DNA of 64,000 bases. Origin: Promethearchaeota archaeon (lineage in GTDB: Archaea > Asgardarchaeota > Lokiarchaeia > Sigyniarchaeales > SOKP01). The DNA lies in the NCBI GenBank assembly GCA_016839585.1, contig JAEOTZ010000072.1, positions 1 through 64,000 of the forward strand, read 5' to 3'. Shown here piece after piece: positions 24,440 through 61,426 of this stretch; position 1 is the stretch's first letter, and every line of letters begins with the position of its first letter. The position numbers and the translations under genes are program-made. The notes below the pieces were generated by a model. It was not told where the DNA came from. It was given only the letters and a program-made list of their open reading frames with translations, and made no database searches.

Positions 24440-24626
24440 GGTGATTCCAATTTTTTACTTATTTAACTATAAAGTTTAATATGGTTAATTTCATTAAGAT
24501 TTTTAATAATTTCTTTTATTATAACTTAAAAATTTACTAAAGATTAGAACATAAAATTTATATACCCCGCTAAAATTAAGTTATAAGAATCTAACCAGAA
24601 TAAAGATCTTATGAAGGAGATAAGAG

Positions 24627-25202
24627 ATTACTGAAGAGAAACCAATTTATATTTTCAAAATTTGCATTTTAGGTCAAGAAAGGGTAGGAAAAACTTGCCT
24701 TGCAAGAAGACTATGTTTCGATACTTTTGATGTAAATACAAAAGAAACTATTGGAATAGATTTTTATACATATAATCTTCCTGCTATTGTTGATGGGGAA
24801 GATACTTTTATTCGACTAAGTGTTTGGGATTTTGGTGGTCGTGAACAGTTTAAAAAATTCTTTCCTTACTACATCAATGGTGCTAATGGAATATTCATGG
24901 TATTTGATTTGGTTGATCTTCAAACTTTATTAAGATTAGACTGGTGGTACGAGAGATTAGGTGATTATTATCATGCAGATTCTCCAAGGATTTTCATTGG
25001 GACAAAAAATGACCTAGTTAAAATTGCTGACGAGAAAAGTAAGGTTGATGATTTAGTTATTAAAAGATTTATGGAAAGGCATGATGAAGGATTATTTTTT
25101 AGAACATCTTCAAGGGATAATTATAATGTTCAAAAAATTTTTAAAGAACTTGTTATTAAAGTATTAGAAAAAAATAAATTAGATTATGATAAGCTCTTAT
25201 AA
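24627..25202 (+). CDS. Rab-like small GTPase, 191 aa, ATT start (ORF track gives only the C-terminal half)
   Basis: (I)TEEKPIYIFKICILGQEGVGKT…TIGIDF…VWDFGGREQF…TKND…TSS; in-frame TAA at 24621; SD AAGGAGA. Confidence 0.88.
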   Translation: MTEEKPIYIFKICILGQERVGKTCLARRLCFDTFDVNTKETIGIDFYTYNLPAIVDGEDTFIRLSVWDFGGREQFKKFFPYYINGANGIFMVFDLVDLQTLLRLDWWYERLGDYYHADSPRIFIGTKNDLVKIADEKSKVDDLVIKRFMERHDEGLFFRTSSRDNYNVQKIFKELVIKVLEKNKLDYDKLL

Positions 25203-25286
25203 ACAAACCTAGTTTATTCAAATCTTACCTTTATTTAAAATTCAAAGATATCTAAAGTGATTTCACAAAAAATTAAAATTAAAAAA

Positions 25287-26756
25287 TTAATTTTTATTCG
25301 AATTTAGCCTTCTTATCTTTTCTCCATATTCAAATAAATTCAAGAAGGATTTAGCAGCTGCTTCTATGGTGGGATAAACAAGAAAATTATCTTTTATCAG
25401 CATTTCATAAAAAGCTTTTCGGGACTTACTAGGATATTGGTGTAGAATTATGATGAAGATCTTATTGAGAGATTCAACATACTTTTTTAATTCCAATAAA
25501 TTGTTATAGTATGCTTTAAAAAATTCTCCTTCCCAATCTCCCCAAGCATCTGTTTCCACTATTATTAAATCAATATTTTCATCAATAGCTGCTTTATTAA
25601 CTTCTAAAAACACTTTTTTATGTTCTATCCAAGGTAAGTCAAGAGGATTTGATAAGCTACCGATTGTAATAGGATATATTTTTTTTAGTTTTTCCAAAGT
25701 CTTACCTTCAAAATAAGGCAGTTCTAGACCCATTTCTGTTAGGGTATCTGTAGCTAAAATTCCAAAACCACCAGACCAAAGAATCATTAAAGTTCTCTTA
25801 CTTTTTGGATATATCACTTTTTTTTTAAGTTTTTTAAATCTATTTATATGATTAGAGAAGATATAAGCATTATCAATTAATCTATCTAATGATGGAGGGA
25901 CTTCAATAACAGATGTTTGTTTATATATTGCATCCCATATGCTTCTTTTAGTTGTCATCGAACCTGTATGTGTTAAAACTGCAGTTTGACCTCTTTTAGT
26001 CATTCCACCTCTCATAAATAATACGGGTTTATTCAAATTTTTTAATACATCCAATAAATTTTTTCCTTCATTGATATACAATGGTGAAATTCCTTCAAAA
26101 TAAACACAAATTAAATCAGTTTCTTTGTTATTATTAAAATATTGTAAGAATTCAGAAATTTGTATATCTATACAATTTCCTATACTTACCCCCATCGAGA
26201 ATCTAAGATTGTATTTGCGTGAACCAAATTTAACTAGTTTTGAATGTAAATCTCCCGATTGAAAAATTAGACCAATATTGCCCTTCTCTACAGGAAAAGA
26301 TGGATAATAAGCTATTTTTCCATGTGGACTATACAAACCCATACAATTGGGTCCAATTGCTCGAGTATTAGGATGTTTATTTAGAATTTCTTTTAATTGT
26401 TTTTCAATTTTCAATCCTACTTCATCAGCTTCTCCTGTCCCTGCTGTAAAAATGTGAATGAACTTTACTTTCTTTTTTGAGAGTATCTCTTGCAATGATT
26501 TAATAAGAAATTCTCTTCTGACTGATAAAATTAGAAGATCAATTGTATCTGTTGGGATATCATCCACTGATTTATAGCATTTTAAACCTGTCAACGTTTC
26601 TATTGTAGGGGAAATCAAAAATAATTTCTTTAAATTGAAACCTTGTCTCTTGAATCCGTTTATAAAAAATGAAATTTTTTCTTTTACTTCATAGATAGCA
26701 ACAGTTCTAGGATTAAAAATCAATTCTAAAGAATTATCATAGTTTTGCATTTTCAA
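25287..26756 (-). CDS. Acyl-CoA synthetase (NDP-forming) alpha subunit
   Basis: IGPNCMG, FQSG, VSIGN, HTGS, SGGFG, NPLD motifs. Confidence 0.88.
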   Translation of the reverse strand: MKMQNYDNSLELIFNPRTVAIYEVKEKISFFINGFKRQGFNLKKLFLISPTIETLTGLKCYKSVDDIPTDTIDLLILSVRREFLIKSLQEILSKKKVKFIHIFTAGTGEADEVGLKIEKQLKEILNKHPNTRAIGPNCMGLYSPHGKIAYYPSFPVEKGNIGLIFQSGDLHSKLVKFGSRKYNLRFSMGVSIGNCIDIQISEFLQYFNNNKETDLICVYFEGISPLYINEGKNLLDVLKNLNKPVLFMRGGMTKRGQTAVLTHTGSMTTKRSIWDAIYKQTSVIEVPPSLDRLIDNAYIFSNHINRFKKLKKKVIYPKSKRTLMILWSGGFGILATDTLTEMGLELPYFEGKTLEKLKKIYPITIGSLSNPLDLPWIEHKKVFLEVNKAAIDENIDLIIVETDAWGDWEGEFFKAYYNNLLELKKYVESLNKIFIIILHQYPSKSRKAFYEMLIKDNFLVYPTIEAAAKSFLNLFEYGEKIRRLNSNKN

Positions 26757-27357
26757 CGTTATCCTCCGTATTCATAGTTAATTTAGTATTACAATTGTAA
26801 CAGAATTGAGGAATTGAGTTAAACTCAGTTCCACATTTTGGACATTTAGATATACATTTGCTTGCAATTAGTTGTAAATCCTCATATTGAACTACAGCTT
26901 TAGTTTTTATGATAACCTTTAAAGCTAAAGAAATTCCTATTGATATTGATACAATTAAGATACCAAGGATAATTGTGTTGAATAAATGTGAAGGAAAATT
27001 AGAATCAAAATATTCAGGGGAATATCTCGATAAAAATACATAAAAAAAGAAGTTAGGAAAGAAATAAGTTGTTAAATTCATAGAATAAGCTTTTTTATAA
27101 TTACTAAATATGAAAATCGGTATTAGTGATATTATTATCCAAATTGAGTAAATAAAGGACAAATTATACAGGTTATCAAACATTATGTAGTTAGCTAAAA
27201 ATTGTATTATCTTTTTATGCTCCTTTGAAATATCTATATCGAAATTAATATTAAATTTATAATCAAAACTATAAATAATAGAACTTAAAATAACAATTTG
27301 AATCAAAAAAATTACTAACTTCTTTTTAAATATCTGGAAAAACCTATTTTTCTCCAT
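26737..27357 (-). CDS. Membrane protein with C-terminal Zn ribbon
   Basis: About 4 TM helices plus CPKC…CYNC. Confidence 0.7.
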   Translation of the reverse strand: MEKNRFFQIFKKKLVIFLIQIVILSSIIYSFDYKFNINFDIDISKEHKKIIQFLANYIMFDNLYNLSFIYSIWIIISLIPIFIFSNYKKAYSMNLTTYFFPNFFFYVFLSRYSPEYFDSNFPSHLFNTIILGILIVSISIGISLALKVIIKTKAVVQYEDLQLIASKCISKCPKCGTEFNSIPQFCYNCNTKLTMNTEDNVENAKL

Positions 27358-27658
27358 ATTAAATTACTAAATTCAGCATTTAATTAAACTATTAATATCT
27401 TAGAATAACAATTTTTATCTTATTTATTAATCAAAATTTTATCTATAATTTTATCTGCCTTTAGATTTCATTAAATTTCCAAGTTAAGATCATTAGGATG
27501 ATATTTTAATGAGTGAGCTATTTTAACATAGTACAAATGGAAAAATCGGTCTAAAATCGTAAAATTTTTAATATTTGGTGTATTCTTTACTATACAGTGG
27601 AAAGTTCATATACTTTTTTTTTAAGAATATCATTATTATTTCAAAACCAAAATAGAGG

Positions 27659-30604
<2,946 letters not shown>

Positions 30605-30610
30605 ATAAAT

Positions 30611-31810
30611 ATGGTCAAAGTGACACCTAAAATTTTAGAAGAACGTTTAAAAGTTTTATTAGATGATGGTATCCCAGGTGATTTAATCGAAAAAATTCGA
30701 GAAAAAGTAAAAGATGTAGATTTAGAAGAAGAACAATTAGAATACCTTTTGAATAAAGTATTTATTAATTATAATAACTCATTAATGGAAGCAAATGAAC
30801 CATGCGGGACAGTTGCAGCTCAATCAATTGGTGAACCTGGAACTCAAATGACCCTTCGAACTTTCCATTATGCAGGTGTTGAGGAGTTCTCAGTTACTCA
30901 GGGTCTTCCACGTTTGATTGAAATTGTAGATGCTAGGCGTTTTCCCTCAACTCCACAAATGACTATCTACTTAGAAGAACCTTATAATAAAACAGAAGAA
31001 GAGGCTATTAAGGTCCATAATCGTATAGAACAAATTAGAATTGAACAGATTACACATGATGTAGATCTTGATTTTGTAAATTGGCAAATTCATATTAATC
31101 TTATCCCTGAAATCTGTGAGAAGAAAGGAATAGAAATCGAACAAATCCCTGAAATTTTAAAAAGATATAAGAAAAAAGGTACAATTAAGCGAGAAGGAAA
31201 CACGATCATTATTGATCCTGGAATTGAAGATCTTCAGAGTTTACAGAAATTAAGAGAAAAAATCCTAAAAAAAGTAGTAAAAGGTATTAGAGGAGTAAAA
31301 AGAGGATTATTAACACCTTCAGACAATAATGAAGAATGGGTTATAAAAACTGAAGGTACAAACATGCAAGGGGTAATTCAAATTGATGGAGTGGATACAA
31401 CAAGAACAGTTTCAAATCATATCCATGAAATAGAAAAATTATACGGTATAGAAGCTGCACGTAAGATGATTATTACTGAAGCACAAAAAGTCCTTGAACA
31501 ACAAGGTTTAGATGTTGATCTAAGGCACTTACTAATTTTATCAGATTTAATGTGTCATACTGGATCAATTCAGTCCATAGGAAGACATGGAATTTCAGGC
31601 TCAAAATCGAGTGTCTTCGCTCGCGCTGCCTTCGAAGTCACAGTCAATCAATTATTGGACGCAGGGCTTTATGGTGAAGAAGAACGGCTCCTTGGAATTC
31701 CTGAGAATGTCATCATAGGTCAGGTTATTCCGATTGGCACGGGTCGTACGTCGATCATGTTCGATCTTGACCGAAATTTGGAGATATTAAAGAAGAAAGG
31801 CAAAAATTAA
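30611..31810 (+). CDS. rpo1C: DNA-directed RNA polymerase subunit Rpo1C (A'')
   Basis: [32 protein letters not shown]. Confidence 0.97.
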
Positions 31811-31998
31811 GCAATTTATAGTATTTACTAATAATTTAGGTTAATTTAATTAAATTTTCACTTATTATTTAAAAAATATTATTATAAAAAAAATATTGTT
31901 AATATAAATGAAGAAATAACATAAACTAACAAAAAATTAAATTCAAGTATAAATTATAATTACTATTAGTCAACTAAAAGATACTTTTTGAGAAGATA

Positions 31999-32379
31999 AT
32001 GGCAAAGATGAAGAAGAGTAAAGCTGTAGCTGAAAAGGTTGATTTATCGCGTAAGAAAGTGAAGGAATTTGATATTGACACAAATATCAAAGTTGCGTAT
32101 AAAACTGGAAAAATTGTATTTGGTAGAAATCAAGTGTTAAGGTCAATGAGACAAAATAGATATAAAATGATAATCATTGCAAATAATTGTCCTATGGACC
32201 TTGTAAAGCAATTAAATCACTATAATTCTCTTGGTAAGGACAAAATTTTTATTTATAAATATAAAGGTTCAAGTTGGGATTTAGGATTGGCTTTTGCGAA
32301 ACCCTACATGATTAGTATTATAGGTATTTATGACTATGGTGATTCCAATCTTCAAAGTTTAATTAGTAAAAGAACGTAA
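31999..32379 (+). CDS. rpl30e: 50S ribosomal protein eL30
   Basis: KTGKIVFG, IIANNCP, YKGSSWDLG. Confidence 0.93.
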   Translation: MAKMKKSKAVAEKVDLSRKKVKEFDIDTNIKVAYKTGKIVFGRNQVLRSMRQNRYKMIIIANNCPMDLVKQLNHYNSLGKDKIFIYKYKGSSWDLGLAFAKPYMISIIGIYDYGDSNLQSLISKRT

Positions 32380-32395
32380 CTTAATTGGTTCAAAA

Positions 32396-32584
32396 ATGTT
32401 AAGAAAACATATTAGAATTGATCAAAAATCGATGGAACTTATTTCCTTATTTAATAATATTTCCGGTGCTATAATAAAAGACTGTCTGATTTTTAGATCT
32501 CCTGAAAATAATTCTGAAGTAGTTATCTTTTTAGTAAAAAAAGAAGATGTTGGTAAAGCAATTAAATCACTATATTTCTCTTAG
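32396..32584 (+). pseudogene. Truncated nusA copy (5' part)
   Basis: Near-identical to the first 56 aa of 32746..33225, then reads out of frame into the rpl30e copy. Confidence 0.88.
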
Positions 32585-32729
32585 TAAGGACAAAATCTTT
32601 ATTTATAAGTATAAAGGTTCAAGCTGGGATTTAGGATTGGCTTGTGCGAAACCCTACATGATTAGCATTATGGGTATTTATGACTATGGAGATTCCAATC
32701 TGCAAAGTTTAATTAGTAAAAGATCGTAA
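32547..32729 (+). pseudogene. Truncated rpl30e copy (3' part)
   Basis: Near-identical to the C-terminal half of 31999..32379. Confidence 0.88.
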
Positions 32730-32745
32730 TTTAATTGGTTCAAAA

Positions 32746-33225: not shown

Positions 33226-33334
33226 TTAGAAGAACTCATTCTTTTCTATTTAAGAAATTTATGATATTCATAAATTTTAAGTTTAAAGAAGTATTTCTAT
33301 TTAATATTCATAATGTTAATAGCTGGTGTTTAAA

Positions 33335-33769
33335 ATAGGAAAACCAAAAGGTTTATACGCTGCGAGACAATTAAGAAAAAATCGTAGACGTTTTCGCTGG
33401 TCAAAATCTAAATATAAGAGAAAAAAGTTAAAACTCAAACAGAAAGTTGATCCTCTTGAAGGAGCTCCACAAGCCCTAGGTATCGTGCTACAGAAAGTTG
33501 GAAGAGAAAGTAAACAACCTAATTCAGCTATTAGGAAATGCGTGCGCGTACAATTAAAGAAAAATGGAAAGAGTATTACTGCTTTTCTGCCAGGAGATGG
33601 AGCTTTAAACTTTATTGAGGAGCATGATCGTGTTCTACTAGAAGGTATTGGAGGTGCTAAAGGACGTGCTATTGGTGATCTCCCTGGGGTAAGGTGGAAA
33701 GTTGTAAAAGTAAATGGTGTAAGCCTACAAGCACTTTTAACTGGTAAGAAAGAAAAGCCACTTAGATAG
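33335..33769 (+). CDS. rps12: 30S ribosomal protein uS12; probable ATA start (alternative GTG 33326)
   Basis: (M)[32 protein letters not shown]. Confidence 0.96.
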
Positions 33770-33781
33770 AGGTAATAGATA

Positions 33782-34399: not shown

Positions 34400-34589
34400 C
34401 TTTTTTTAAAATTTTTAACCAAATCTCTTACTATAAGTTTCAATATCACCTACATATTATCTTTTTTTATTAAGGCAATGGAAAATTCCCAAATTTTTAT
34501 ATAATTGATAAACATATTATTTAGATAAGCATCGTTAAAGGTATAGAACTATATCTATATTTAAAATTGATTCCGACAAAAAATAAAAT

Positions 34590-36566: not shown

Positions 36567-36589
36567 AATATAATAAATAGAGAGCTTAC

Positions 36590-37953: not shown

Positions 37954-37968
37954 AAAGCGTGAATTAAT

Positions 37969-44699: not shown

Positions 44700-45924
44700 T
44701 TAGAAATAGTGCACAGTAATATAATCAGGAACTACTACTTCCTCTTCTTTATTTTTGCAAGCAACAAAGTTTATTTTCATGTTTATTGATAGTGTGAGAA
44801 GACGTTTGGTTAAAATACCATCTATTATCAAATATTGGGTATCTTTATAATTTCTGATTTTTTCAAAAAGTTCTCCAACCATTATATCAAATAGCTTCTC
44901 CATTGCTTTATTAAAACCTATACTATGACCAGGTTCAATATCTTTAATACCCTCAATGATCGCAGATTCATTTTTAACCTTAAGATTTTTTAAAACATTA
45001 TATAGTCCCTCTTCTTTACCTGCATATTCTAATTCAACTTTTTCGATATCCTTTATTTCTTTAAACAAATTAGCGTTTTTCTTGTTTTGTAGTGCTTTTA
45101 TCAATTGCTTTCTAGTTAATTCCTCAACTTCATATCCCTCAGGAGCTCTAGCAATGAAATCAATTTTAGCAACTTGTAAAAGTTCCTTTAAAATGATCAT
45201 TCCACCCCTATCTCCATCCATAAACGCTGTTACCGAACTCTTATTTTTTGTTAATTTTATTACTGGCTTAGGCACTTGGGTTCCTTGGACTGCAATTGTA
45301 TTTTTAACACCAATCCTTAATAAGTTTAAAACATCTGCACGACCTTCCACAATTATTAAATCAGGATTAATATCTACTTCAGGTCCAGCAGGTAATTTTT
45401 CTTTACCCCAAGAAAGAATTTCTCCAAGTTTAATATCTGTGTCAATTTGTTCTTCTATTTCACTTGGTTCTAAAGATTTTTGATCCCACTCTTTTAAAAG
45501 TTCAGTAGCACGTTTAATTATTTTTTTTCGTTTTGTTTCGCGAACATCACGAATCTCTAAGAGTTTCATATCTGCTTCGCAAGGTCCAACCCTAGATACT
45601 GTTTCAACAGTCGCAGCTAATAGTGCTGTTTCTTTACGCGTGAGGCTACTAGGTATTTTAATGATCCCTTCGGAAATTCCTTCCTTGGATTCATTATCAA
45701 CCTCGATTCTTCCAATTCGTCCAGATTTTTGTAAATCCCTTAAATCCAGATCCAAAAGAAGACCTTCGGTTTAGCCGATTAAGCCGAATTGGCTTCAAGT
45801 TTCTTTATCTCTGGCCAAAAATAGCCCCCACAATATCGCTTTGTTCTACAACACCTTTAATTTTGAATTTTGTGGTGATAATATATTTTGTGGTAAATTC
45901 ATTTTGACTGGTAATCTTGATCAC
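44700..45924 (-). CDS. dnaG: Archaeal DnaG (TOPRIM; exosome-associated), split gene: exon 1 45924 (GTG; or ATT 45915)..45811, exon 2 45770..44700
   Basis: Exon 1 KYII…GVVEQSDIVGAIFGQ; exon 2 TEGLLLDLDLRDLQKSGRIGRIEV…IVEGRADV…DGDRGG. Confidence 0.9.
45771..45810 (-). other. Putative 40-nt BHB/BHL-type mRNA intron in dnaG
   Basis: AGAUAAAGAAACUUGAAGCCAAUUCGGCUUAAUCGGCUAA; removal restores GAIFGQTEGLL; central helix GGCC/GGCU with AG|A and AA|A junctions. Confidence 0.8.
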
Positions 45925-48828: not shown

Positions 48829-48955
48829 TTTATAAATCACCTATTTTAAATTATTATGATTAATATTAGTAATTTTATGATCTTATTTAAATATGATCTT
48901 GGAAAATTGTATAATAATTATAAAAAGTTTAAGCAAATTATTATATATTTAAAAA

Positions 48956-49891: not shown

Positions 49892-50034
49892 AAAAACTGT
49901 TTTATAAATCCAAAGAAAGTTGTTGAATTTAGGAAATCTATTTCTAATTACATGTAACTAAATTCTTAATAACTTTCGGATATTTCATTAAATAATACGA
50001 AAAATAAATCCTATAATATCTTTTATTAAAAAAG

Positions 50035-52122
50035 ATGACTCATTTTTTTGAAGTAATAAGTACAAAGGTTGGTTATTCAAGAATAGGACGGGTTTTAATA
50101 TCTAAAAAACCTAAAATTTATGGCAAAACACCTAATATCCTTATTCCTATAAGAAATGTTTTAATGCATCAATTAGATTTTATAGAACAATTTGAAAACC
50201 ATGATTTTTTCGTAATTACTAAAGAAATTTTTTTAAAAATTAGTTTTATCAGGGATAAATTCAAAAAAACAGGATTTATTTTTACTCACACAGGGAAATT
50301 AGAAAGATTTCAACAAATACTAGTTGAAAATTCAGATATTTTTTTTGAGGATAATATAATATCAATAATTCCATTTAATATTCCAACTACAATTATTAAT
50401 AAGGATTTTGTTCATAAGGAAATTGAAAATTATATTAATTCTGCTGAAAAAATTCTAAAAAATAATCCGAATCTTAATTTTGGTATAACTATAAAAATAT
50501 TTGATTACCCTAAATTAGTTAATCTATATTTTCCACTGATAAGAAATAATGAAAATATCAAAATATTAAATTTAGCGGATATCTTCGATAATTTTAGCTA
50601 CTTCAGGAACATAATCGGACTTCTTGGCGAAATTAAAACACATTTAGATAATAATATTATTATAATGGCTTCTGGTAGGGTAATTCCTAAATTTTATCCA
50701 ATTTTAATATACCTTGGAGTCGATCTAATAGATAGTTCTTATTTAATGTATTTATCAGGAGAAAATTTCTATGATTCGATAGAATACTTGTTACCAATCT
50801 ATAAAATAAAATTTTTACCTTGTTCTTGCGTTGCGTGTCAAGGAAAATTAAAGAATTTATTAGAAGATAAATATTCATCCGAAAAAATTGATCTACTTTG
50901 TTTACATAATTTAATATCAGCGTTTAATTATATGAAAAAAATCAAACAGTATATATCTTATGAAGATTTTAGAGCATTTGTCGAAAAATCTTCTCTAGAT
51001 GATACTAATGTAATTTCAATTCTAAAAGTTTTAGATAAATCTTATTTTGACCTCATAAGATACGAGACGCCAATAGTCCAAGAAAATAAAATTGTTAAAT
51101 GTTTTGGACCCTCATCATATTATAGACCGGATTTCCAAGAATTTAGAGTAAGAACCATAGAAAATTTTGAACCAGAGCCATGGACTAGACTAATTATATT
51201 ACTTCCATGTTCTGCTAAAAAACCATATTCAGAATCTAAGTCACATAAATTATTTCATAAAGCAATTAGAAAATTTTCAGAATTTCCCCATTTCCAAGAA
51301 TTTATTTTAACTTCACCTTTAGGGATTATACCAAGACAATTAGAAAATATTTATCCTGTTAATTCATATGATATTTCAGTTACTGGAGAATGGGATAATG
51401 AAGAACTTAATATTACTGTAGAAATGCTTGTGAAAATATTAGAGAAATATAATAAAGATATTCCAATAATTTGTCATCTTGAAAATGGTTATCTTGAAAT
51501 TGCCAAGAAAGCAACTTCAAAGTTAGAGCACAATTTTATCTTTTCTAAAATATATGGAAGAACAACTTCTAAAGAATCACTTCAATCTTTGGAGAATTTA
51601 ATTAAAGAACAAAAAGATAAGTACATAGTAAACGAAAGTCTTCCAAGAAAAGATTTTATCTCAAAAACCTGGATAAGAAAGTTCATAAAAATATTAGATT
51701 ATCAGTTTGGTCCAGGTTCAGGAGTAAAAATTATTTCTAGTGGGATAGTTCTAAAGAAGAATAAAGCTTCTACTCAAATTAGCTTAATAAACTCTAATAA
51801 GAATGAAGAAATAGGTGTTTTTAAATTCAAAACTGGACAAATTAGCTTAAACCTTAAAGGAATCATTCAAATTACTCAAGATCCAAGTTCTATTAAATCC
51901 AATTATATTATGTTTGATGGAGAAGAGATTATGGGAAACACATTATTTCGAGCAGGAATTTTAAATTGGAGTTCTGATCTAATCCCAAATAATCATGTTA
52001 TCATCCTTGATAAAAAGAAAAAGAATATAATTGCAATAGGAGAGCTGTTAGTAGGGTCAAATTTTATCAAAAATTCAAAAGCAGGAAGGATAGTAAAAAT
52101 TTATGAAAAAGCACAATTCTAA
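50035..52122 (+). CDS. arcS: Archaeosine synthase alpha subunit ArcS (TGT-like plus PUA)
   Basis: GVDLID, LLPCSAKKPYS.SKSH, TSPLGIIPRQLE, C-terminal PUA. Confidence 0.9.
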   Translation: MTHFFEVISTKVGYSRIGRVLISKKPKIYGKTPNILIPIRNVLMHQLDFIEQFENHDFFVITKEIFLKISFIRDKFKKTGFIFTHTGKLERFQQILVENSDIFFEDNIISIIPFNIPTTIINKDFVHKEIENYINSAEKILKNNPNLNFGITIKIFDYPKLVNLYFPLIRNNENIKILNLADIFDNFSYFRNIIGLLGEIKTHLDNNIIIMASGRVIPKFYPILIYLGVDLIDSSYLMYLSGENFYDSIEYLLPIYKIKFLPCSCVACQGKLKNLLEDKYSSEKIDLLCLHNLISAFNYMKKIKQYISYEDFRAFVEKSSLDDTNVISILKVLDKSYFDLIRYETPIVQENKIVKCFGPSSYYRPDFQEFRVRTIENFEPEPWTRLIILLPCSAKKPYSESKSHKLFHKAIRKFSEFPHFQEFILTSPLGIIPRQLENIYPVNSYDISVTGEWDNEELNITVEMLVKILEKYNKDIPIICHLENGYLEIAKKATSKLEHNFIFSKIYGRTTSKESLQSLENLIKEQKDKYIVNESLPRKDFISKTWIRKFIKILDYQFGPGSGVKIISSGIVLKKNKASTQISLINSNKNEEIGVFKFKTGQISLNLKGIIQITQDPSSIKSNYIMFDGEEIMGNTLFRAGILNWSSDLIPNNHVIILDKKKKNIIAIGELLVGSNFIKNSKAGRIVKIYEKAQF

Positions 52123-53203
52123 AATTACCTATAATGAATCATTGACCGAAAAAATATTTTTTTATAGGCAACAAACCTTAAAAAGAAAGAAAAAATACGA
52201 TCAAGAGCAATTAAACAAGCCAATTACTTTTTGGATAAAAAAGGAAAGACTTTTAGGTGAAATTGGGAAGGAATTCACTATTATTTTGAGAACTAGAGGA
52301 TGTGATTGGGCATTAGGAGCTCATGGTGGATGCTCAATGTGCGGTTATATTAAAGACGCTAATATAGAAAATGTTGCTCCTACGCAAATAAAAAATCAGT
52401 TTGATTATGCTCTAAGTAATAAATTAAATGAAATCAATAAAGATACTGATAATTACGTTTTAAAATTATTTAATTCTGGTAGTTTTCTTGATGAGGGTGA
52501 AATAAGTGAAAATGTTCGAAGATATATTTATGAAAAAATCGCAAGCATAGGAAAAATTAAAGAGGTTGTTTTGGAATCAAGAGTAGAGTATATAACTCCA
52601 GATAAACTCATTGAAATAAAGCGATATTTAAAAAATAAATATCTTGAGATTGGAATAGGACTTGAAGCCATAGATGATTACATAAGAAATAATTATATCA
52701 ATAAGGGGCTTTTATTTAGTGATTTTAAAAATGCTATTCAAATATGTAAAGAACATAATATTGGGGTAAAAGCATATTTATTATTTAAACCTCCATTCGT
52801 AAATGAACAAGGAGCAATGGATGACTGTGAAAATTCAATAAAAGAATTAATAGAATTAAAAGTAAATTCTATATCAATAAATCCTTTAAATATTCAAAAA
52901 GGCACATTTACGGAATTTTTATGGTTTCAAAAAAGATATAGACCACCATGGTATTACTCACTATTTAAATGTTTAAAAAGATCATTATCACAAGAGGATT
53001 TAAAAACAGTGAGAATTTTATCTGATCCTTCAGGAGCAGGAACTAAAAGGGGGATTCATAATTGTCTAAAGAGGGAATGTGAGAGCTCTGCCAAAGAAGT
53101 TTTAAGAAAGTTTGTTCTTACTCAAGATTTAAGAGAATTAGATAAAGAGACATTTGATTGTAACTGTAAAAAAAAGTATAAAATGCAAAAATCTTATTAT
53201 TGA
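52103..53203 (+). CDS. Archaeosine biosynthesis radical SAM enzyme RaSEA
   Basis: ILRTRGCDW…GGCSMCGY, FNSGSFLD, KAYLLFKPPF, YRPPW; overlaps arcS. Confidence 0.9.
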   Translation: MKKHNSKITYNESLTEKIFFYRQQTLKRKKKYDQEQLNKPITFWIKKERLLGEIGKEFTIILRTRGCDWALGAHGGCSMCGYIKDANIENVAPTQIKNQFDYALSNKLNEINKDTDNYVLKLFNSGSFLDEGEISENVRRYIYEKIASIGKIKEVVLESRVEYITPDKLIEIKRYLKNKYLEIGIGLEAIDDYIRNNYINKGLLFSDFKNAIQICKEHNIGVKAYLLFKPPFVNEQGAMDDCENSIKELIELKVNSISINPLNIQKGTFTEFLWFQKRYRPPWYYSLFKCLKRSLSQEDLKTVRILSDPSGAGTKRGIHNCLKRECESSAKEVLRKFVLTQDLRELDKETFDCNCKKKYKMQKSYY

Positions 53204-53344
53204 ACATCTCTATTTCATGATTAGTTTTTTTTGTCATAAGGGGAATTGCCATTTTTGTAATTTATTATCAAAAAAACCATTATATTTAAATAATAACCAC
53301 CAATGTTTTATTTTATATTTGAATTACTAAGCTAGGCATTACGC

Positions 53345-53593
53345 TTGAAAAACTGGGTTAAATTAAATCTATTTTATGTTGGCAAATCAAAAAAGCATTA
53401 TATTTTTAGAGCAAAACAATGGAATAGAAAATTAGAAAAATTGTTAAAGCAATCACTTTTTAATGAAAAATATGAGAAGATTGGATATATTAAAGATATA
53501 TTTGGCCCATTTGAATTACCATTTCTTTCAATAAAAACCTTACCCGGTCAGCAATTTGACCCTAATGATAAATTTTATGCTAATTTGACCTAG
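53345..53593 (+). CDS. gar1: H/ACA RNP component Gar1
   Basis: KIGYIKDIFGPFELPF; conserved position upstream of tfb. Confidence 0.8.
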   Translation: MKNWVKLNLFYVGKSKKHYIFRAKQWNRKLEKLLKQSLFNEKYEKIGYIKDIFGPFELPFLSIKTLPGQQFDPNDKFYANLT

Positions 53594-53640
53594 ATTTTTA
53601 AAGATCTTTTTAAAAAATGTTTTAAAATAAGGTGTAATCG

Positions 53641-54612
53641 ATTTCAAGTTGGAAAGAACTTAACGCAGAAGTAGAGGAGAACTTAAGTATAGAAAATAAT
53701 AACTGTACAGAATGCGGAAAAAATATTTTTTTTGATGAAAATAGAGGATTATTAGTTTGTGAAGAATGTGGTTTAGTTCACTCCGAGAAACATATTGATC
53801 GGGGCCCAGAATGGAGAGCCTTTGATGCAGATCAGAAAAAGAAAAGAACTAGGACTGGCGCACCCATGACTTACATGATACATGATAAAGGACTTAGCAC
53901 TATGATTGACTGGAAAAATCGAGACATTTTTGGAAAAGAAATTCCTGCTAAATTACGAGGTCAGATATTTCGGCTTCGGAAATGGCAGTCTCGGATTAGA
54001 GTATCTAACGCAACTGAAAGAAATCTCACTTTTGCTCTAAGTGAACTTGATCGAATGGCTTCAAATCTTGATCTTCAAAAAAATCTAAGAGAATGTTCAG
54101 CAAAAATTTATCGCGATGCTGTTGAAGCTCATCTTATCCGGGGTAGAAGTATAGAGGGTGTAGCAGCTGCTAGTTTATATGCTGCTTGTAGAATGTATAA
54201 AGTACCTCGAACACTTAATGAAATTGCTGATGTAGCACGCGTAGATAAGAAAGAAATTGGTAGATCTTTCAGATTTATCTCTAATGAATTAGAGTTAAAT
54301 TTAAATCCAACCAAACCAATAGATTTTCTTACAAGATTTATCTCTGAACTCAAATTAAGCACAAGATGCCAAAAAATAGCAAAAACAATTATTCGAATGG
54401 CAGAAGAACATGGTTTAACTTCTGGTAGAGGTCCAACAGGAGTATGTGCTGCAACTATTTATGCTGCGAGTATCTTAACGAAAGAAAGAAGAACTCAAAG
54501 AAGGATTGCTCTTATAACAGGGGTAACAGAGGTAACTGTTCGGAATAGATTTTCTGAACTTATAGAAAATATAAATCTAGGTATATCCTTAAAGAGAAAT
54601 AATAAATTATAA
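53641..54612 (+). CDS. tfb: Transcription initiation factor TFB, 323 aa, ATT start (ORF track misses the Zn ribbon and B-reader)
   Basis: In-frame upstream CTECG…GLLVCEECG…[10 protein letters not shown]; in-frame TAA at 53635; SD AAGGTG. Confidence 0.93.
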
Positions 54613-54700
54613 TTTAGAGCTAATTAATGTTAACTTTTTATAAGTTAAGAAATTATAGTTTATTTTATAGAGAAAATTTAAAGATATAGCAATTTAAATT

Positions 54701-55294
54701 ATGAAAGAAGAATTAAGATCCAATGGAAAACCAAGACTGCCACCTGGTCAACATATTGCTAAACGATTCCCCATTCTCCAAAAAGGAAGTGTAGTTCATC
54801 TTGATAGAGAAACATATAAATTAACTTTAGAGGGAGAAATTGAAAATCCTATGACTTTTACACTTCAAGATCTTGAAAATCTAGAAGATAAAGAAATTGT
54901 TGCAGATATTCATTGCGTCACATCTTGGAGCAAATTTAATACAAAATGGGGTGGAATTTCTTTTTCAACGCTTTTTAAAATTTTAAACCCAAAAGAAGTT
55001 GCTCATTTTGTTGAATTTTACTGTGCAGATGAAGGTTTTACAACCACAGTTCCTATTGAAAGGTTAAAAGCAGATAATGCTATTTTAGCATTAACTTATG
55101 AAGGGCTTCCTATAAATAATCAACATGGAGGACCTGTACGCCCAATTATTCCAGATTTATATTTATATAAAAGTGCAAAATGGGTTATAAAAATAATGTT
55201 TCTCAAGGAAGATAGATTGGGGTATTGGGAAAGAGGAGGGTATAGCAATAAAGCAGATCCATGGAAGGAACAACGCTACAGTTATCATGATTAA
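54701..55294 (+). CDS. Sulfite oxidase-like molybdopterin-binding oxidoreductase
   Basis: RLPPGQ, DIHCVT.WS, HGGPVR, KSAKW, GYWE..GY. Confidence 0.9.
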   Translation: MKEELRSNGKPRLPPGQHIAKRFPILQKGSVVHLDRETYKLTLEGEIENPMTFTLQDLENLEDKEIVADIHCVTSWSKFNTKWGGISFSTLFKILNPKEVAHFVEFYCADEGFTTTVPIERLKADNAILALTYEGLPINNQHGGPVRPIIPDLYLYKSAKWVIKIMFLKEDRLGYWERGGYSNKADPWKEQRYSYHD

Positions 55295-55446
55295 TATCCA
55301 ATTACGAAACATAATATAATTTTCATAAATTTGAAATAATTATTCTGAGTTAAATCATAATATCTTCATAATATAGCATTTAATGACTGAATTTTCTTAT
55401 TTTTAACCTATCAATTCGATCAAATTGATAGGAAAGGTGTTAAAGA

Positions 55447-55782
55447 TTGGATGATCTAATAAAACAGGATGAGGTAAACTATTTCTTATATAGGATAGAA
55501 AAAAAGTTTCCTAATTTTATAGCAGGTATTATAACCGACAAACATGGATTTCCTGTCGCTTCATCTATTTCAAAAAGACTTTGGATCCTCGAAAATACAT
55601 TAGCACTATCAGCAGTTACTAAAAATAGAGACTTTATTAATGATTCTAAGCTTATCAAAATTAAAAAAGATTTAGATAAATCAAAAAATTATAAACTCTT
55701 AATCTTATTAGAGAAGACAAAAGATTACAAGAGTCGGATAAAGCCATTGAAAGATTTAATTAAAACGCAAACACTTTTTTAA
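55447..55782 (+). CDS. Roadblock-like small protein
   Basis: AGIITDKHGFPVASS motif. Confidence 0.55.
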   Translation: MDDLIKQDEVNYFLYRIEKKFPNFIAGIITDKHGFPVASSISKRLWILENTLALSAVTKNRDFINDSKLIKIKKDLDKSKNYKLLILLEKTKDYKSRIKPLKDLIKTQTLF

Positions 55783-55995
55783 TCGTTTTATTTGTGGTAA
55801 AGAAAGTTAAGCAATTTATATTACAGACTGGATGAAAACAAATTACTTACTTAAATTTTTAAATAAAAAATTTCATTATCTATTAGAATTGCTATAAGCA
55901 CAAATATCAAGTTTAGTTTAAATAATTAATTTACAATATGAAGAAAGCTTTTGATAAAAAATAATGAATTAATGATTGTTTAGGTTGACAAATTA

Positions 55996-56457
55996 GTGAG
56001 CTATTCTGAAGATGAACTTAGATTAAAAAAAATTTTAACCACAATTATAAATAGTACTTCTGGTTTGAAGTATGTTATAATAATTGATGATACAGGAATA
56101 ACTATCCTAAGTCAATCTAAATTTAAGTTTTCTAATGAAAATGGTATCTCTGTTGAAAAGATTGGGGCAATCGGGGGGGCTGTTTTTATTGCTGGAGAGG
56201 AACAAGGCCAAATTCTTGGGTATGGAAAAATTGACCTACAAATTACTGAATATTATGGGGGAATGATTTTTTCAGCTAAAGTTGGTAAAGGAGTGTTGTG
56301 TATTATTACTGACAAGAATGTTCAAATCGGTTTTATACGTGCCATCATGAAGAAATGGGCTCCTCAAATTGCTAAAATATTACATAGATACTTACAGGCT
56401 GAGCCCAAGGAGATTAGTAAAGAAATTAGAGAGTTATTTAATCAGCACGTTGTTTAA
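55996..56457 (+). CDS. Roadblock/LC7 domain protein
   Basis: IIIDDTGITILS…IGAIGGAVF…QG..LGYG…VG.GVLCII. Confidence 0.85.
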   Translation: MSYSEDELRLKKILTTIINSTSGLKYVIIIDDTGITILSQSKFKFSNENGISVEKIGAIGGAVFIAGEEQGQILGYGKIDLQITEYYGGMIFSAKVGKGVLCIITDKNVQIGFIRAIMKKWAPQIAKILHRYLQAEPKEISKEIRELFNQHVV

Positions 56458-56499
56458 AATCAGCATATTATTGTTGCCTAAAACACTAACACATTTTTC

Positions 56500-56790
56500 T
56501 CATTTAACGGATATACCATAAAATTGATAATGTTCTCTCGTGTTAGGCGTTAATTTATATGCCTTCTTGGGACCATAATCATGTACCCTGCCTGGGTATA
56601 CTGGCGATAACCTCATAGCATGGTCTTTACCTTTGCTTGGTTAAGAGCCCATTTTTACAGGATTAGTATTGATTATTAAACTCTGGCTGTCAGCATTACT
56701 ATGCACTTCATAATCATCTTTTTTCATATGAGTCCTCGAAAATGCCTTTATTCCATCATTGTTGTCCCATTATAATAGTATAAAGACTTA
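56500..56790 (-). pseudogene. Possible gene fragment with one internal stop
   Basis: …NDGIKAFSRTHMKKDDYEVH…KMGS*PSKGKDHAMRLSPVYPGRVHDYGPKK…; GC higher than flanks. Confidence 0.3.
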
Positions 56791-56817
56791 ATTAAAAATT
56801 TTTCTTAACTTATTTTC

Positions 56818-57570
56818 TTAATCGTTCTTAATTATCTCACGAATTTTATCATAAGATCCTAACAATTCTAAAACTTGGGTATCATTTAGTCCTTCTTTAG
56901 GTTCTCCTTCATAAAGACTCTTTCCATTATCTAATACGAGCATTTTTTTTGCCCAGTTCTCAACAAAAAAGAGGTTGTGTGTCGTAAACAAAATAGTCAT
57001 ATTTTCTTCTCTCTTTAAATTCTCTATAATTTTAAGGTGATTATATATTGCATTGAAATCAAGATTGGCAAATGGTTCATCCAATATCAACAATTTAGGC
57101 TTTAATACTAGTAAACCTGCTAAAGCAGCTCGTTTCTTTTGGCCCCAAGATAAATTAAATGGAGAATAATCCTTAAACTCAATTAAATTAACTGCTTGCA
57201 AAGCCCACAATACGCGCTTTTTTACCTCTTTTTCATCTAATTTTAAATTTCTTGCACCAAAACCTATATCCTCTTCGATTGTTGGAGCAAATAACTGATC
57301 ATCTGGATTTTGGAATAAAAATCCAATTTTTTGTCTAATCTCCCATAATTCTTTTTTATTTCTTGTAAGTGGTTCATTAAAAATCTTAATAAACCCAGAT
57401 TCAGGTTTCAATAAACCAACCAACAATCTTAATAAAGTAGTTTTCCCCGAACCATTGTTCCCTGTTAATGCATATATGGAATTCTCTTCGATTTTAAGTG
57501 AGAGATTTTGAATTTTAAATCCAGAATTATAACTAAAATTCACATTTTCAACCTCTACGGCAAAAATAAT
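56818..57570 (-). CDS. cbiO: ECF transporter ATPase CbiO/NikO (start likely ATT 57567/57570; GTG 57543 alternative)
   Basis: GNNGSGKTT, FQNPDDQLF, LSWGQKKR, LDEP; in-frame IIFAVEVENV upstream. Confidence 0.9.
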   Translation of the reverse strand: MIFAVEVENVNFSYNSGFKIQNLSLKIEENSIYALTGNNGSGKTTLLRLLVGLLKPESGFIKIFNEPLTRNKKELWEIRQKIGFLFQNPDDQLFAPTIEEDIGFGARNLKLDEKEVKKRVLWALQAVNLIEFKDYSPFNLSWGQKKRAALAGLLVLKPKLLILDEPFANLDFNAIYNHLKIIENLKREENMTILFTTHNLFFVENWAKKMLVLDNGKSLYEGEPKEGLNDTQVLELLGSYDKIREIIKND

Positions 57571-58358
57571 GAAATAACCCCCTGATATATAAATTCTAAA
57601 TTAATAAAATAAATTAATAGAATTACTGTTATTATATAAAAAGTTAATAGGGTGAAATCATGAAACTTAACCCTTTTTGTTGCAAATGTTATCTTTCCCG
57701 AAAAACCTCTCATCTTTAGACTTTCAAATAACTTTTCACTTCGTTCCATGTTCAATATAATACTTTTTCCCATTATATAAGCATGTATCTTTAATTTTTG
57801 CCAATAAGTTGTGATCTTTTTACCTCTCATTTCCTGTGCTTCTAATATTTTCTTATTTGAGCTTGCCAGTATTGGAATATAATGAAGCATAATTACAAAA
57901 GATCCAATTAAGAATGCGGGAATTCTTAATTTCGTTAATGCTTCTATGAACTCTGAATAAGTTAATGTTGAGAAAAAGGACATGAATACAAATAATGCTC
58001 CAAAGACTCTTAAAAAAATTAGGAAAGCTAAAGATAAACCTTCTTTGTATATATTAATTTTAATCCCAATTTTTAATTGATAAATAATGTTGTCGCCAAC
58101 ATATAAAGGAATAAACAATGTAATTAAAAGAACAAATGGAATGATAACTGTAAATCTAGAGAGAATCTTTAAAATATTTAATCGAAAAATTAGATTGAAA
58201 ATTAAAGTAAGTATCAAAATTGTGAATATTAGGTAAATATTGTTAATAAAAAGAAAAGGTAATACGAGAATAAAAGGTAAAATTAAGCGAACTAAAGGAT
58301 GGATTTTATTCAAATAAGTTTTTTCATTTTCATGGCGAAATGGTAATGTAGTTTTCAA
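57555..58358 (-). CDS. cbiQ: ECF transporter T component CbiQ/NikQ
   Basis: TM helices; AQEMRG and SLKMRGF motifs. Confidence 0.88.
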   Translation of the reverse strand: MKTTLPFRHENEKTYLNKIHPLVRLILPFILVLPFLFINNIYLIFTILILTLIFNLIFRLNILKILSRFTVIIPFVLLITLFIPLYVGDNIIYQLKIGIKINIYKEGLSLAFLIFLRVFGALFVFMSFFSTLTYSEFIEALTKLRIPAFLIGSFVIMLHYIPILASSNKKILEAQEMRGKKITTYWQKLKIHAYIMGKSIILNMERSEKLFESLKMRGFSGKITFATKRVKFHDFTLLTFYIITVILLIYFINLEFIYQGVISLFLP

Positions 58359-58403
58359 GATTGTATCAGCAAGCCAGTCAGAATTTGATGTTCATACTGG
58401 AAT

Positions 58404-58439
58404 ATAATTTAGTAATATTTTATAATAATACTAAATTAT
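58404..58439. promoter_or_regulatory. Perfect 11-bp inverted repeat in the cbiQ/cbiM divergent promoter (candidate metalloregulator operator)
   Basis: ATAATTTAGTA-N14-TACTAAATTAT. Confidence 0.55.
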
Positions 58440-58508
58440 GGGATAATAATATTCATTATAAAAAAAATTAATCATTATAATTAAAAATTAAGAAAAGGTG
58501 AAAATAAT

Positions 58509-59180
58509 ATTCATATACCTGATGGATTACTTAATCCCATGACGTTAATTACCCTTTCAATTGTTGTTATGATAGTAATGATTCTTGGATTTTTCAAGAT
58601 GGGTAAAGTTTTTGAAAACGAAGATTCTGAAAAATTAATACCATATATTGGTGTATTGGCAGCTGTAATATTTGCTTTTCAATTTGTAAATTATCCTGTT
58701 CCTGGAGGTACATCAGGTCATTTAGTGGGAGGAACTTTAGTTGCAGTTATATTAGGTCCATGGGCATCTGTTATTGTATTGTTTTTAATTTTAGTTGTGC
58801 AAAGTTTATTTGGAGATGGGGGAATTACTGCTTTAGGAGCAAATACTTTCAATATGGGAATAATTGGAGGTATTGTTGGATTTTATATTGTAGTGTTTAT
58901 TGTAAGACTATTGAATAATACATCAATTAAAAAAGAAATGAAAGTTTCAATTGCCACTGCGATTGGATCTTATATTGCTATAGTGTTAGCCTCACTTATC
59001 TGTGGTATTGAATTAGGTTTTTCTGGAGAAATTCCTTTTAAAATTGCTATTCCTGCGATGGTTTACTGGCATATTTTTATAGGCATAGGAGAAGCAATCA
59101 TCTCTGCTTTGATTATATTTTATATATATAAGACAAAGCCAGATTTTATAACAACAGAATTAATGTTGGGGGTAAAATAA
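58509..59180 (+). CDS. cbiM: Co/Ni ECF S component CbiM/NikM, ATT start
   Basis: ATT-CAT-ATA-CCT-GAT-GGA = (M)HIPDG; GTSGHLVGG, GDGGITALGAN, GIGEA. Confidence 0.92.
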   Translation: MHIPDGLLNPMTLITLSIVVMIVMILGFFKMGKVFENEDSEKLIPYIGVLAAVIFAFQFVNYPVPGGTSGHLVGGTLVAVILGPWASVIVLFLILVVQSLFGDGGITALGANTFNMGIIGGIVGFYIVVFIVRLLNNTSIKKEMKVSIATAIGSYIAIVLASLICGIELGFSGEIPFKIAIPAMVYWHIFIGIGEAIISALIIFYIYKTKPDFITTELMLGVK

Positions 59181-59183
59181 AAG

Positions 59184-59489
59184 ATGAGTGTTATCAATAA
59201 ATATAAATGGCCAATTCTTTCAGTATTTGTAATTGTTGGTGTATTAATGGTTATGATAGCTGTTGGATTCGCAATAGGAATTTTATCAGAAGACCCAGAT
59301 GGATTAGAAAGAGTATTAATTGATGAAAAAGATGAATCATGGTTAGAGAATTTAGCATCTCCTTGGGAACCAATATTGAGTTGGATAACAAGTGATTATG
59401 GAGCAGGCATTTTAGGGATTCTTATTTCTATTACTACTATGATTTCAGTTTTCTACGTTATAATTTATTATAAAAAAAAGAATCCGTAA
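59184..59489 (+). CDS. PDGLE-domain (NikN/CbiN-like) membrane component
   Basis: SEDPDGLERV between two TM helices. Confidence 0.85.
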   Translation: MSVINKYKWPILSVFVIVGVLMVMIAVGFAIGILSEDPDGLERVLIDEKDESWLENLASPWEPILSWITSDYGAGILGILISITTMISVFYVIIYYKKKNP

Positions 59490-59639
59490 TTAGTATAAAA
59501 TTTTTTTTCCTATTATTTTTTTAAAAAGATTGATTTAATTCTCTTTTTATTTCTGAATTTTTAATCTAATAAAATAATGCCAAATTAATTAGAGAGTAAT
59601 TTCTATTTAATATATTAGAAATTACTTTTTAATTTTTTT

Positions 59640-60236
59640 ATGAATCTGATATTTTTTATTAAATCTGCAACAGTTGATCTTGAAAACTACACTATTAAAG
59701 ATATTCCTGGATCTTCTGGTCGATTAGATGTAATATCACGGTGTATTCTTGCAGCAATATTAAGTAATAATAATTTTGAAAAAAAAATTGAAATTTGGGT
59801 ATTTTTGGATAATTATGGTACATATACCTTCAATCCAGAATCGCTAGATTATGCGAACTTTCCAAAAAATGAATTAATGCTTACAGATTATTTTGTTAAT
59901 TTCCTTCAAAAATTAAATTCAAAAGAAGAACTAAATCAGAATCCACTGAATTCTATTAAAATCTCAAAATTGAGTATTATTGAAGCAATAAAAAAATATC
60001 AACAAAGGAATTATTGTATTGTTGTTTTAAAAGAAGATGGTAAAGATTTTTTTAAATTAAGAAATATCATTCAAGAAAAGGATAATGTTATTTTCGTCAT
60101 TGGTAGTCAAGAAGGCAAATTTATTAATTCAAAGGAATTACAAGCTTTAAATCTTCCAAATCTTAGTATAGGAACTCAATCGTATTTAGCTTCATCAGTT
60201 ATACGACTAATTAAATTACATTTAAAGCCATTATAA
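59640..60236 (+). CDS. trmY: tRNA (pseudouridine54-N1)-methyltransferase TrmY
   Basis: DIPGSSGRLDVISRC, FVIG…G, LSIG…YLAS. Confidence 0.87.
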   Translation: MNLIFFIKSATVDLENYTIKDIPGSSGRLDVISRCILAAILSNNNFEKKIEIWVFLDNYGTYTFNPESLDYANFPKNELMLTDYFVNFLQKLNSKEELNQNPLNSIKISKLSIIEAIKKYQQRNYCIVVLKEDGKDFFKLRNIIQEKDNVIFVIGSQEGKFINSKELQALNLPNLSIGTQSYLASSVIRLIKLHLKPL

Positions 60237-60299
60237 TAAATTTTTTATTAAAAAGAACTTTTAAAAGTATTACTTAAATTAAAGGATCTTGAAATCAAT

Positions 60300-61028
60300 T
60301 TGAGTGGAGATAATAGGAAACGAGTAAAACAAAAACAATTTGCAAACAAATTTATTGATGGTCCAGTAGAATTTCTAATTAAACATAACATTTCTCCAAA
60401 TACACTTTCATATTTAGGTTTTTTTTGTTCCTTAGGAGCAGCGTTTCTTATAGTATTGGGATTTATTCATCATTTTTTCTGGTTCGCTTGGCTTGTTCCA
60501 TTCTTACTGTTTTGGGCAGGTGCCTTTGATGTATTTGATGGTGAAGTTGCTAGAAGAACTGACAATATTACTAAATCCGGTGCTTTCCTTGATTCAAATT
60601 TAGATAGACTTTCTGATGCAGTGCTTATACTTGGATTAATATACGGTGGTTTTGTTCATTTTTTACTTGGTTATGTAATAATGTTTCTAATTATTATGAT
60701 CTCATATATTCGAGCAAGAGCAGAAAATGAAGGGATTAATATGAAGGGAATTGGCTTTATGGAAAGAGCAGAAAGACTAATATTTCTTATGATTGCCTTA
60801 ACTTTAGAAACATGGTTTTACTATTTTTCAGAATTAATGACAGGAAAACCTTGGACTATATACAATCCCATTATTACTTCAAAACCAGTAACCTGGTTCT
60901 TCCTATTTTTTATATTGGGTTATACTTTCTTGCTTATTTTAACAGTAGGACACAGATTATTGTATACGTTTAAATTCTTAAAAAATTCAAATGATAATAA
61001 AGAAGAAATGGATTTAAACAATACATAA
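60300..61028 (+). CDS. CDP-alcohol phosphatidyltransferase (archaetidylinositol phosphate synthase-like)
   Basis: SPN.LS, DVFDGEVAR…GAFLDSNLDRLSD, SYIRARAE, ERAER. Confidence 0.9.
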   Translation: MSGDNRKRVKQKQFANKFIDGPVEFLIKHNISPNTLSYLGFFCSLGAAFLIVLGFIHHFFWFAWLVPFLLFWAGAFDVFDGEVARRTDNITKSGAFLDSNLDRLSDAVLILGLIYGGFVHFLLGYVIMFLIIMISYIRARAENEGINMKGIGFMERAERLIFLMIALTLETWFYYFSELMTGKPWTIYNPIITSKPVTWFFLFFILGYTFLLILTVGHRLLYTFKFLKNSNDNKEEMDLNNT

Positions 61029-61150
61029 AAAGAATTTATATCTATTTTAACATTTCTACAAGAATCCATAAATTATTTAAGCCTTCTCTAATTCTAATAG
61101 TTAAAATATTAGAAGTTTTAATACAAACAATCTAAAACGAGGTCATAATT

Positions 61151-61426
61151 ATACCAAAGAAACGAAAATCGGGAGGAAAGTCTGGTTCGAGCAAAGGAAA
61201 ATATGGTTTAGTTCAATGCTCGAATTGTGGCAAACACATACCAAGAAGTAAAGCAAAAGCTTTTACTAAAAAAGTTAGTCTTGTAGATTATAGAATGTAT
61301 TCAGAATTAAAAAAACAGGGCACTATTATTCAAACACCAGTAAAAAAATCGTACCTTTGTGTGAGCTGTGCGATTCATAAGGGTAGGATTTCACAGAGAG
61401 CTAAAGTTGAACGTAAAATTGGGTAA
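61151..61426 (+). CDS. rps26e: 30S ribosomal protein eS26, ATA start (missing from the ORF track)
   Basis: (M)PKKRKSGGKS…VQCSNCGKHIPRSKA…YLCVSCAIH…RAKVERKIG*; SD GAGGT; in-frame TAA at 61133. Confidence 0.93.
   Translation: MPKKRKSGGKSGSSKGKYGLVQCSNCGKHIPRSKAKAFTKKVSLVDYRMYSELKKQGTIIQTPVKKSYLCVSCAIHKGRISQRAKVERKIG

Follow-up and report, generated by a model that had tools for sequence, protein, structure and literature searches.

Contig JAEOTZ010000072.1 of the Promethearchaeota archaeon assembly GCA_016839585.1 raises the question of whether conserved genes of Lokiarchaeia can begin with ATT, ATA or ATC (collectively ATH, or AUH in RNA) placed behind a Shine-Dalgarno (SD) motif. The window examined here comprises the first 64 kb of this contig (C61 of genome G000; 3.45 Mb, 29% GC, 99% complete). 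The host family is called f1 below; its close public relatives include Loki_b31, Loki_b32 and the SOKP01 assembly. Comparison with orthologues indicates that ATT, ATA and ATC are very probably real start codons in this family, and the gene for the initiation factor aIF1 is among those that carry them.

A sequence-only reading of the window had reported ATT or ATA codons, with SD-like motifs at defined spacings, at the heads of seven conserved genes. All seven codons, motifs and spacings are present as described, and matches to profile models upheld the gene identities. The corresponding features are listed below.

24614..24620, plus strand: SD-like AAGGAGA of the Rab-like GTPase gene
24627..25202, plus strand: small Rab-like GTPase, ATT start, 191 aa, small_GTP match; in-frame TAA two codons upstream
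33335..33769, plus strand: uS12 (rps12), ATA start; GGTG at 33325-33328, 6 nt spacing; the in-frame GTG at 33326 belongs to the SD
45811..45915, minus strand: dnaG exon 1, starting with ATT at 45915 after GGAAGTGA; an in-frame GTG lies three codons further up
45771..45810, minus strand: 40-nt bulge-helix-bulge-like insert of dnaG
44700..45770, minus strand: dnaG exon 2; DnaG model matched from position 27
53641..54612, plus strand: TFB (tfb), ATT start; AAGGTG at 53629-53634, 6 nt spacing; in-frame TAA at 53635
56818..57567, minus strand: ECF transporter ATPase (cbiO-like), ATT start at 57567 (alternative 57570) behind GGGGGT
58509..59180, plus strand: CbiM-like S component, ATT start; AAGGTGA at 58495-58501, 7 nt spacing; CbiM models match from position 1
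61151..61426, plus strand: eS26 (rps26e), ATA start; GAGGT at 61139-61143, 7 nt spacing; model matches from position 1

Four of these genes, Rab, tfb, eS26 and cbiM, had been said to lack an early canonical start, and this is the case: the first in-frame ATG, GTG or TTG is codon 91, 76, 53 and 18, respectively, after the upstream stop. GTG alternatives had been assigned to the other three. They exist in rps12 and dnaG, where the GTG lies three codons before the start and within the SD motif, but not in cbiO, whose GTG is located downstream, nine codons after 57570, so that starting there would shorten the protein. The weakest single cases among the seven are rps12 and dnaG. The ATT codons of tfb, cbiO and cbiM are repeated in a separately assembled Logan contig, SRR14699983 (possibly the source sample), which was used for a sequence check and is 99.98% identical over 50681-59312. 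Base errors are excluded, since identical codons recur in dozens of other genomes and independent assemblies.

In alignments of orthologues, the ATH codons occupy the column of the first methionine, 5-8 nt behind an SD motif complementary to the normal 16S 3' end. The kin sequences used for these alignments come from related genomes and hence are not independent samples. The tfb column contained ATT in 31 and ATC in 2 of the 33 aligned orthologues, with no ATG, and in many of them a stop is located one codon upstream. The dnaG column showed ATT or ATA in 29 of 29 family loci; two loci have an in-frame stop directly before the ATH and no NTG, and three have an adjacent ATG. For cbiO, orthologues favour 57567, with ATT at that column in 13 of 14. 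The codon before the conserved PKKR of eS26 was ATG in 13 of 33 orthologues, ATT in 11, TTG in 6, ATA in 2 and GTG in 1, and nothing else occurred. Within this N-terminal type, the uS12 column held ATA (16), ATC (3), ATG (7) and no other codon, and uS12 of sister families has ATT where their kin carry ATG. The cbiM column was ATG in 9-10 orthologues and ATT in this clade; its leader contains GGTGA, as opposed to the A-rich leader of most ATG kin. In the close relative G080, the Rab leader is equally short and contains the in-frame stop and the SD too, and ATG stands at the exact column of the ATT found here. Kin thus carry ATG at the same column in Rab, cbiM, eS26 and uS12; these four genes, together with eL42 (rpl44e) and uS3, alternate between ATG or TTG and ATH.

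Some further features of these leaders were observed. The Rab-like GTPase of this clade is about 11 N-terminal residues shorter than most kin, which start 11 codons further upstream, and the ATG located 16 nt upstream in its leader (window positions 24600-24630) lies in another frame, overlapping the SD. The uS3 start column in kin (among them L378, L388-L390 and L394) includes ATG, TTG and ATT (5). One uS3 gene (L387, genome G042) has ACG behind GGTGG, and rare use of other near-cognate codons is possible.

Five clean start columns (eS26, eL42, cbiM, PCNA and RpoA1; 174 sequences) contained ATG 116, TTG 35, ATT 17, GTG 3, ATA 2 and other 1 time. TTA was absent from these columns (0/174) and was the top replacement in internal variable Met columns (TTA 201, ATA 109, TTG 108, ATT 97). 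The ATH codons at starts are therefore not explained by ordinary Met-to-Ile change, from which Leu codons would be expected too. Conserved internal Ile columns comprised 54% ATT and 27% ATA, versus ATT in 31 of 33 at the tfb start. Recoding of AUA as Met in elongation was rejected, given that ATA fills 27% of conserved Ile columns; also, ATA does not exceed ATT or TTA in Met columns. ATT and ATA were preceded by a slightly stronger SD than ATG when compared inside orthologue columns (median -1.1 kcal/mol, P 0.03, from kin that are not independent). Swaps between two genomes are rare: ATG-anchored orthologue pairs with a second genus (G079) revealed 1-3 changes from ATG to ATT in about 60 pairs.

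Genome-wide use of ATH was assessed with a start-codon model in which any of the 61 codons was allowed as a start; only this free fit is quoted, because constrained fits inflate whichever codon set is added and were not used. The top six of 61 codons in this genome were ATG (66%), TTG (12%), ATT (6%), ATA (3%), GTG (3%) and ATC (2%); ATH accounted for 11% of starts, and 9% were scattered noise codons. The ATH share obtained with the same model was 6% in 800 kb of G079, about 11% (a noisy value) in sister families, 2% in a mixed 370-kb pool of other Asgard families, and 0.5% in 200 kb of the AT-rich control, Bacillus phage G (30% GC). A model-free test was restricted to open reading frames (ORFs) with the first ATG, GTG or TTG at least 12 codons in, and the presence of an SD core before each codon was scored. 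ATC, ATT and ATA were preceded by an SD core most often of all codons (7.4% versus 2.7% for other codons; Fisher P 1e-13), with the enrichment peaking 7-8 nt from the core. A tabulation over all long ORFs did not clearly separate ATH, the signal being too diluted. The SD strength of the ATH starts called by the model was left out of the evidence, since such an argument would be circular. Based on the free model, the model-free test and the floor set by orthologue pairs, we estimate that roughly 5-10% of genes, some 150-300, would use ATH starts.

The proposal of lineage-wide relaxed start selection, made in the sequence-only reading, agrees with the occurrence of this habit in 13 genera of the family and, patchily, in sister families. 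The relaxation is, however, not uniform. Namely, tfb, aIF1, cbiO and dnaG hold the weak start family-wide, while other genes flip between ATG or TTG and ATT.

The aIF1 gene (C73, locus L031:1462-1791, minus strand) has ATT six codons before the CxxC motif, and its first ATG, GTG or TTG appears 34 codons after this motif. The start column of 37 family loci contained ATT 32, ATA 4, ATC 1 and ATG 0 times, and 28 of the 37 have no in-frame ATG, GTG or TTG before the zinc knuckle. In sister families, aIF1 begins with ATG, TTG or GTG in 10 of 12 loci and with ATA in 2. The 20 loci examined from other Asgard families displayed ATG (11), GTG (3), ATA (3), apparently CTG (2) and one unclear start; the five ATA or CTG loci have no canonical alternative. 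Metagenome aIF1 loci have mostly ATG, with further ATA starts behind AGGAGG. The initiation complex of Sulfolobus binds AUU mRNA without aIF1, and solely AUG mRNA with aIF1 (PMC4705826). Since this factor rejects AUU and its own mRNA begins with AUU in f1, aIF1 would be expected to limit its own synthesis; we lean towards such a negative feedback, with some reserve. The same source, citing Butler 1987 and Ivanov 2010, gives infC (encoding IF3) and eIF1 as autoregulating through a weak start.

The explanation that we favour, and consider likely as a whole, is SD-anchored initiation at AUH that tolerates a mismatch at the third codon position and is gated by the level of aIF1, with autoregulation of the infC type. 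Pairing with the SD would hold the 30S subunit and place AUH in the P site, where the ordinary Met-tRNAi (CAU) would pair at codon positions 1-2. The mismatch of C34 at position 3 would be accepted in the absence of aIF1 or after its early departure, and proteins initiated at AUH would start with Met. By limiting its own synthesis through the AUU start, as IF3 does through infC, aIF1 may hold stringency at a permissive set point. For the genes with a family-wide weak start (tfb, cbiO, dnaG), expression would be co-tuned or held at a low level, and the remaining genes would drift among ATG, TTG and ATT where the SD permits. More tentatively, these genes might form an aIF1-controlled 'weak-start regulon', in which aIF1 autoregulates via AUU, TFB, DnaG, the cobalt ECF ATPase and others are coupled to stringency, and weak aIF1 starts arose repeatedly across Asgard; we regard this as possible and still doubtful.

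Several points weigh against the favoured explanation. The genome-wide ATH share is a model estimate with 9% noise codons and ranges from 3 to 11% across 200-kb subsamples, and orthologue pairs give a floor only, of about 5% (about 11/226). The kin are non-independent samples. Also, aIF1 is not alone in holding a weak start, and outside the family most aIF1 genes begin with ATG; the feedback is thus not universal.

The alternative that survives best, unlikely as we consider it, is that the starts are real and free of any regulation: AT-biased mutation would turn ATG into ATH, and the ribosome would tolerate the change given an SD. The GC content of 29% and the flipping of eS26, eL42, cbiM, uS12, uS3 and Rab between ATG or TTG and ATH in kin are in line with such drift. 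By contrast, tfb (ATG 0/33) and aIF1 (ATG 0/37) never revert across genera in which eS26 flips, the equally AT-rich phage shows only 0.5%, and aIF1 has ATA or CTG starts in Asgard lineages with a pooled background of about 2%.

Degeneration of the fidelity machinery, by loss or mutation of aIF1 or aIF2 or by alteration of the initiator tRNA or 16S, appears improbable, and the suggestion of the sequence-only reading that altered aIF1 fidelity is perhaps the cause is not supported. aIF1 was found in 94 of 107 family genomes. Its zinc knuckle is intact, and the basic loop 1 has the sequence R-K/R-W-G-R/K, which does not differ from that of Asgard lineages where ATH starts are few (loop residues after PMC6237735); loss of aIF1 was rejected on these grounds. 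aIF1A is present and has an ATG start. The initiator tRNA gene (C16, near its start, minus strand) has A1-U72 and three G-C pairs and carries CAU, by which an altered initiator anticodon was rejected. 16S is absent from this assembly; in two kin, the anti-SD GAUCACCUCCU, G1338/A1339 and the 1400 region are all standard. With aIF1 loop 1, the initiator tRNA gene and the kin 16S sites looking normal, a broken fidelity machinery is not supported. What could speak for it is a residue four places before the basic pair of aIF1 loop 1, which is Asn or Gln and tracks phylogeny.

At this position, Asn occurs in most of the family, as opposed to a hydrophobic residue in other Asgard (L031-L082 versus L183-L202), and the two ATA-started genes of sister families have Gln or Asn. 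The initiator tRNA gene, which was missed by ARAGORN and the Rfam scan, contains two introns, in the anticodon loop and the T loop.

It is quite improbable that the Ile codons are ordinary residues, with translation starting from a nearby GTG (rps12, dnaG) or further downstream. Most rps12 and dnaG loci do have an in-frame GTG three codons before the ATH. However, the two intervening codons are free to vary, the GTG is out of frame or separated by a stop in some kin (L030, L361, L371), and 6 rps12 sequences lack an upstream NTG. If translation began downstream, TFB would lose its zinc ribbon, eS26 half of its length, the Rab protein its P-loop and aIF1 its loop 1. Extra N-terminal residues from the upstream GTG are possible in rps12 and in dnaG, each taken singly.

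Initiation by an isoleucyl-tRNA with a UAU anticodon, reading AUH in the P site in organisms with no detectable TiaS, is highly improbable. A tRNA with a TAT anticodon is encoded on C86, and the distribution of TiaS parallels the ranking of lineages by frequency of ATH starts: a search for this enzyme found none in 41 genomes of the family and 3 of the sister family, and it is present in two other Asgard families. However, the UAU tRNA has a G1-C72 pair, and the three G-C pairs are missing from it. A tRNA of this kind should not be loaded by aIF2. Moreover, ATH swaps with ATG, TTG and GTG, which is the behaviour of a start codon, and an ATA-started aIF1 was found in a TiaS-bearing genome (G136). 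The gene for the UAU tRNA (G000 C86:57016-57171, minus strand) has two introns and an Ile-type body.

Two of the genes discussed here carry inserts near their 5' ends. The 40-nt insert of dnaG (45771-45810, minus strand), on which the sequence-only reading of these starts was silent, lies between codons for FGQ and TEG and has bulge-helix-bulge geometry, and its excision restores the frame; an insert of 29-40 nt is present at this junction in 17 family loci and missing in 11. Judged from these features, it is a probable spliced mRNA intron. In uS3, a 31-nt bulge-helix-bulge insert is located seven codons in (G000 C25:60942-60972; L372:1476-1506). Its removal yields KHFIEQG, the reading of the 21 kin shown, all of which are free of the insert. 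Because of these tRNA-type inserts, splicing could conceivably supply an upstream ATG, but a hidden canonical start, provided by such a mini-intron or masked by sequence errors, is the least probable alternative and largely refuted, as no rescue to an upstream ATG was detected at the seven sites, aIF1 or 130 model-called ATH starts by a detector that recovers the dnaG and uS3 inserts, and the codons recur in dozens of assemblies.

AUU is known as the start codon of pcnB in E. coli. Mitochondria initiate at AUA, AUU and AUC, and NCBI table 11 lists alternative initiators. The codon set of mitochondrial initiation is the same as the one described here; in contrast to mitochondria, AUA is not reassigned to Met, a separate canonical initiator tRNA exists, and an SD is present. 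The bacterial infC shares with aIF1 an AUU start behind an SD and a weak start on a fidelity-factor gene. It differs in that IF3 is unrelated to aIF1 and belongs to another domain of life, that few genes are involved rather than hundreds, and that ATA and ATC are also used here; autoregulation is known for infC, whereas for aIF1 the feedback is a prediction from sequence. The eukaryotic factor eIF1 is homologous to aIF1, and the start of its own mRNA should be disfavoured by the factor itself (Ivanov 2010, as cited in PMC4705826). There, however, the start is AUG in a poor Kozak context reached by cap-dependent scanning, as opposed to a non-AUG codon with an SD.

Archaeal start codons are given in a review as AUG, GUG and UUG only (PMC7531240). 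In Haloferax ribosome profiling, near-cognate codons appeared among putative sites, and these minor alternatives were left out of the analysis (PMC7261190). Other archaea have in common with f1 the factors aIF1, aIF1A, aIF2 and aIF5B, a normal initiator tRNA and SD-guided initiation, but AUH as the main start of essential genes is not described in these papers (PMC7531240, PMC4705826, PMC7261190). A description of the ATH-start habit was not found in the literature on start codons and aIF1, of which few subscription journals were covered. With some hundreds of AUH-started genes in each genome, a lineage would fall outside the reviewed picture of archaeal start codons. The conserved AUU of aIF1 offers a direct test case in archaea for the start-fidelity feedback known for IF3 and eIF1. 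If true, the weak-start regulon would give the archaea most closely related to eukaryotes an equivalent of the feedback known for infC and eIF1.

Systematic mis-annotation had also been predicted. Gene callers do truncate such genes, but not universally: several NCBI records place the Met of aIF1 at the ATT position, which is annotation and not measurement. TFB is called with 248 aa instead of 323 and without the zinc ribbon, CbiM with 213 instead of 223 aa, and CbiO with 241 instead of 249 aa. aIF1 of this genome appears as a 70-aa fragment (versus 110), and in many kin it has 70-90 aa. Prodigal-type calls in the family thus drop N-terminal domains, such as the TFB zinc ribbon, the knuckle and loop 1 of aIF1, and half of eS26. 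Such truncation can distort Asgard surveys of presence/absence and domains as well as the design of expression constructs.

The model called several additional ATC or ATT starts in the window. One further candidate gene is the following.

15380..16066, plus strand: candidate gene, ATC start 6 nt behind TAGTGA (GTG inside the motif), model posterior 0.74

The others, at 6724, 20639 and 21301 (all on the minus strand), may not be genes; a clear SD was seen solely at 15380. Finally, uS12 sequences 85-93% identical to the window copy were present on contigs titled Hodarchaeota, Thorarchaeota, Odinarchaeota and Nanopelagicaceae (L250, L266, L296, L301 and others). To judge by this identity, mistaken titles or mixed bins are probable.

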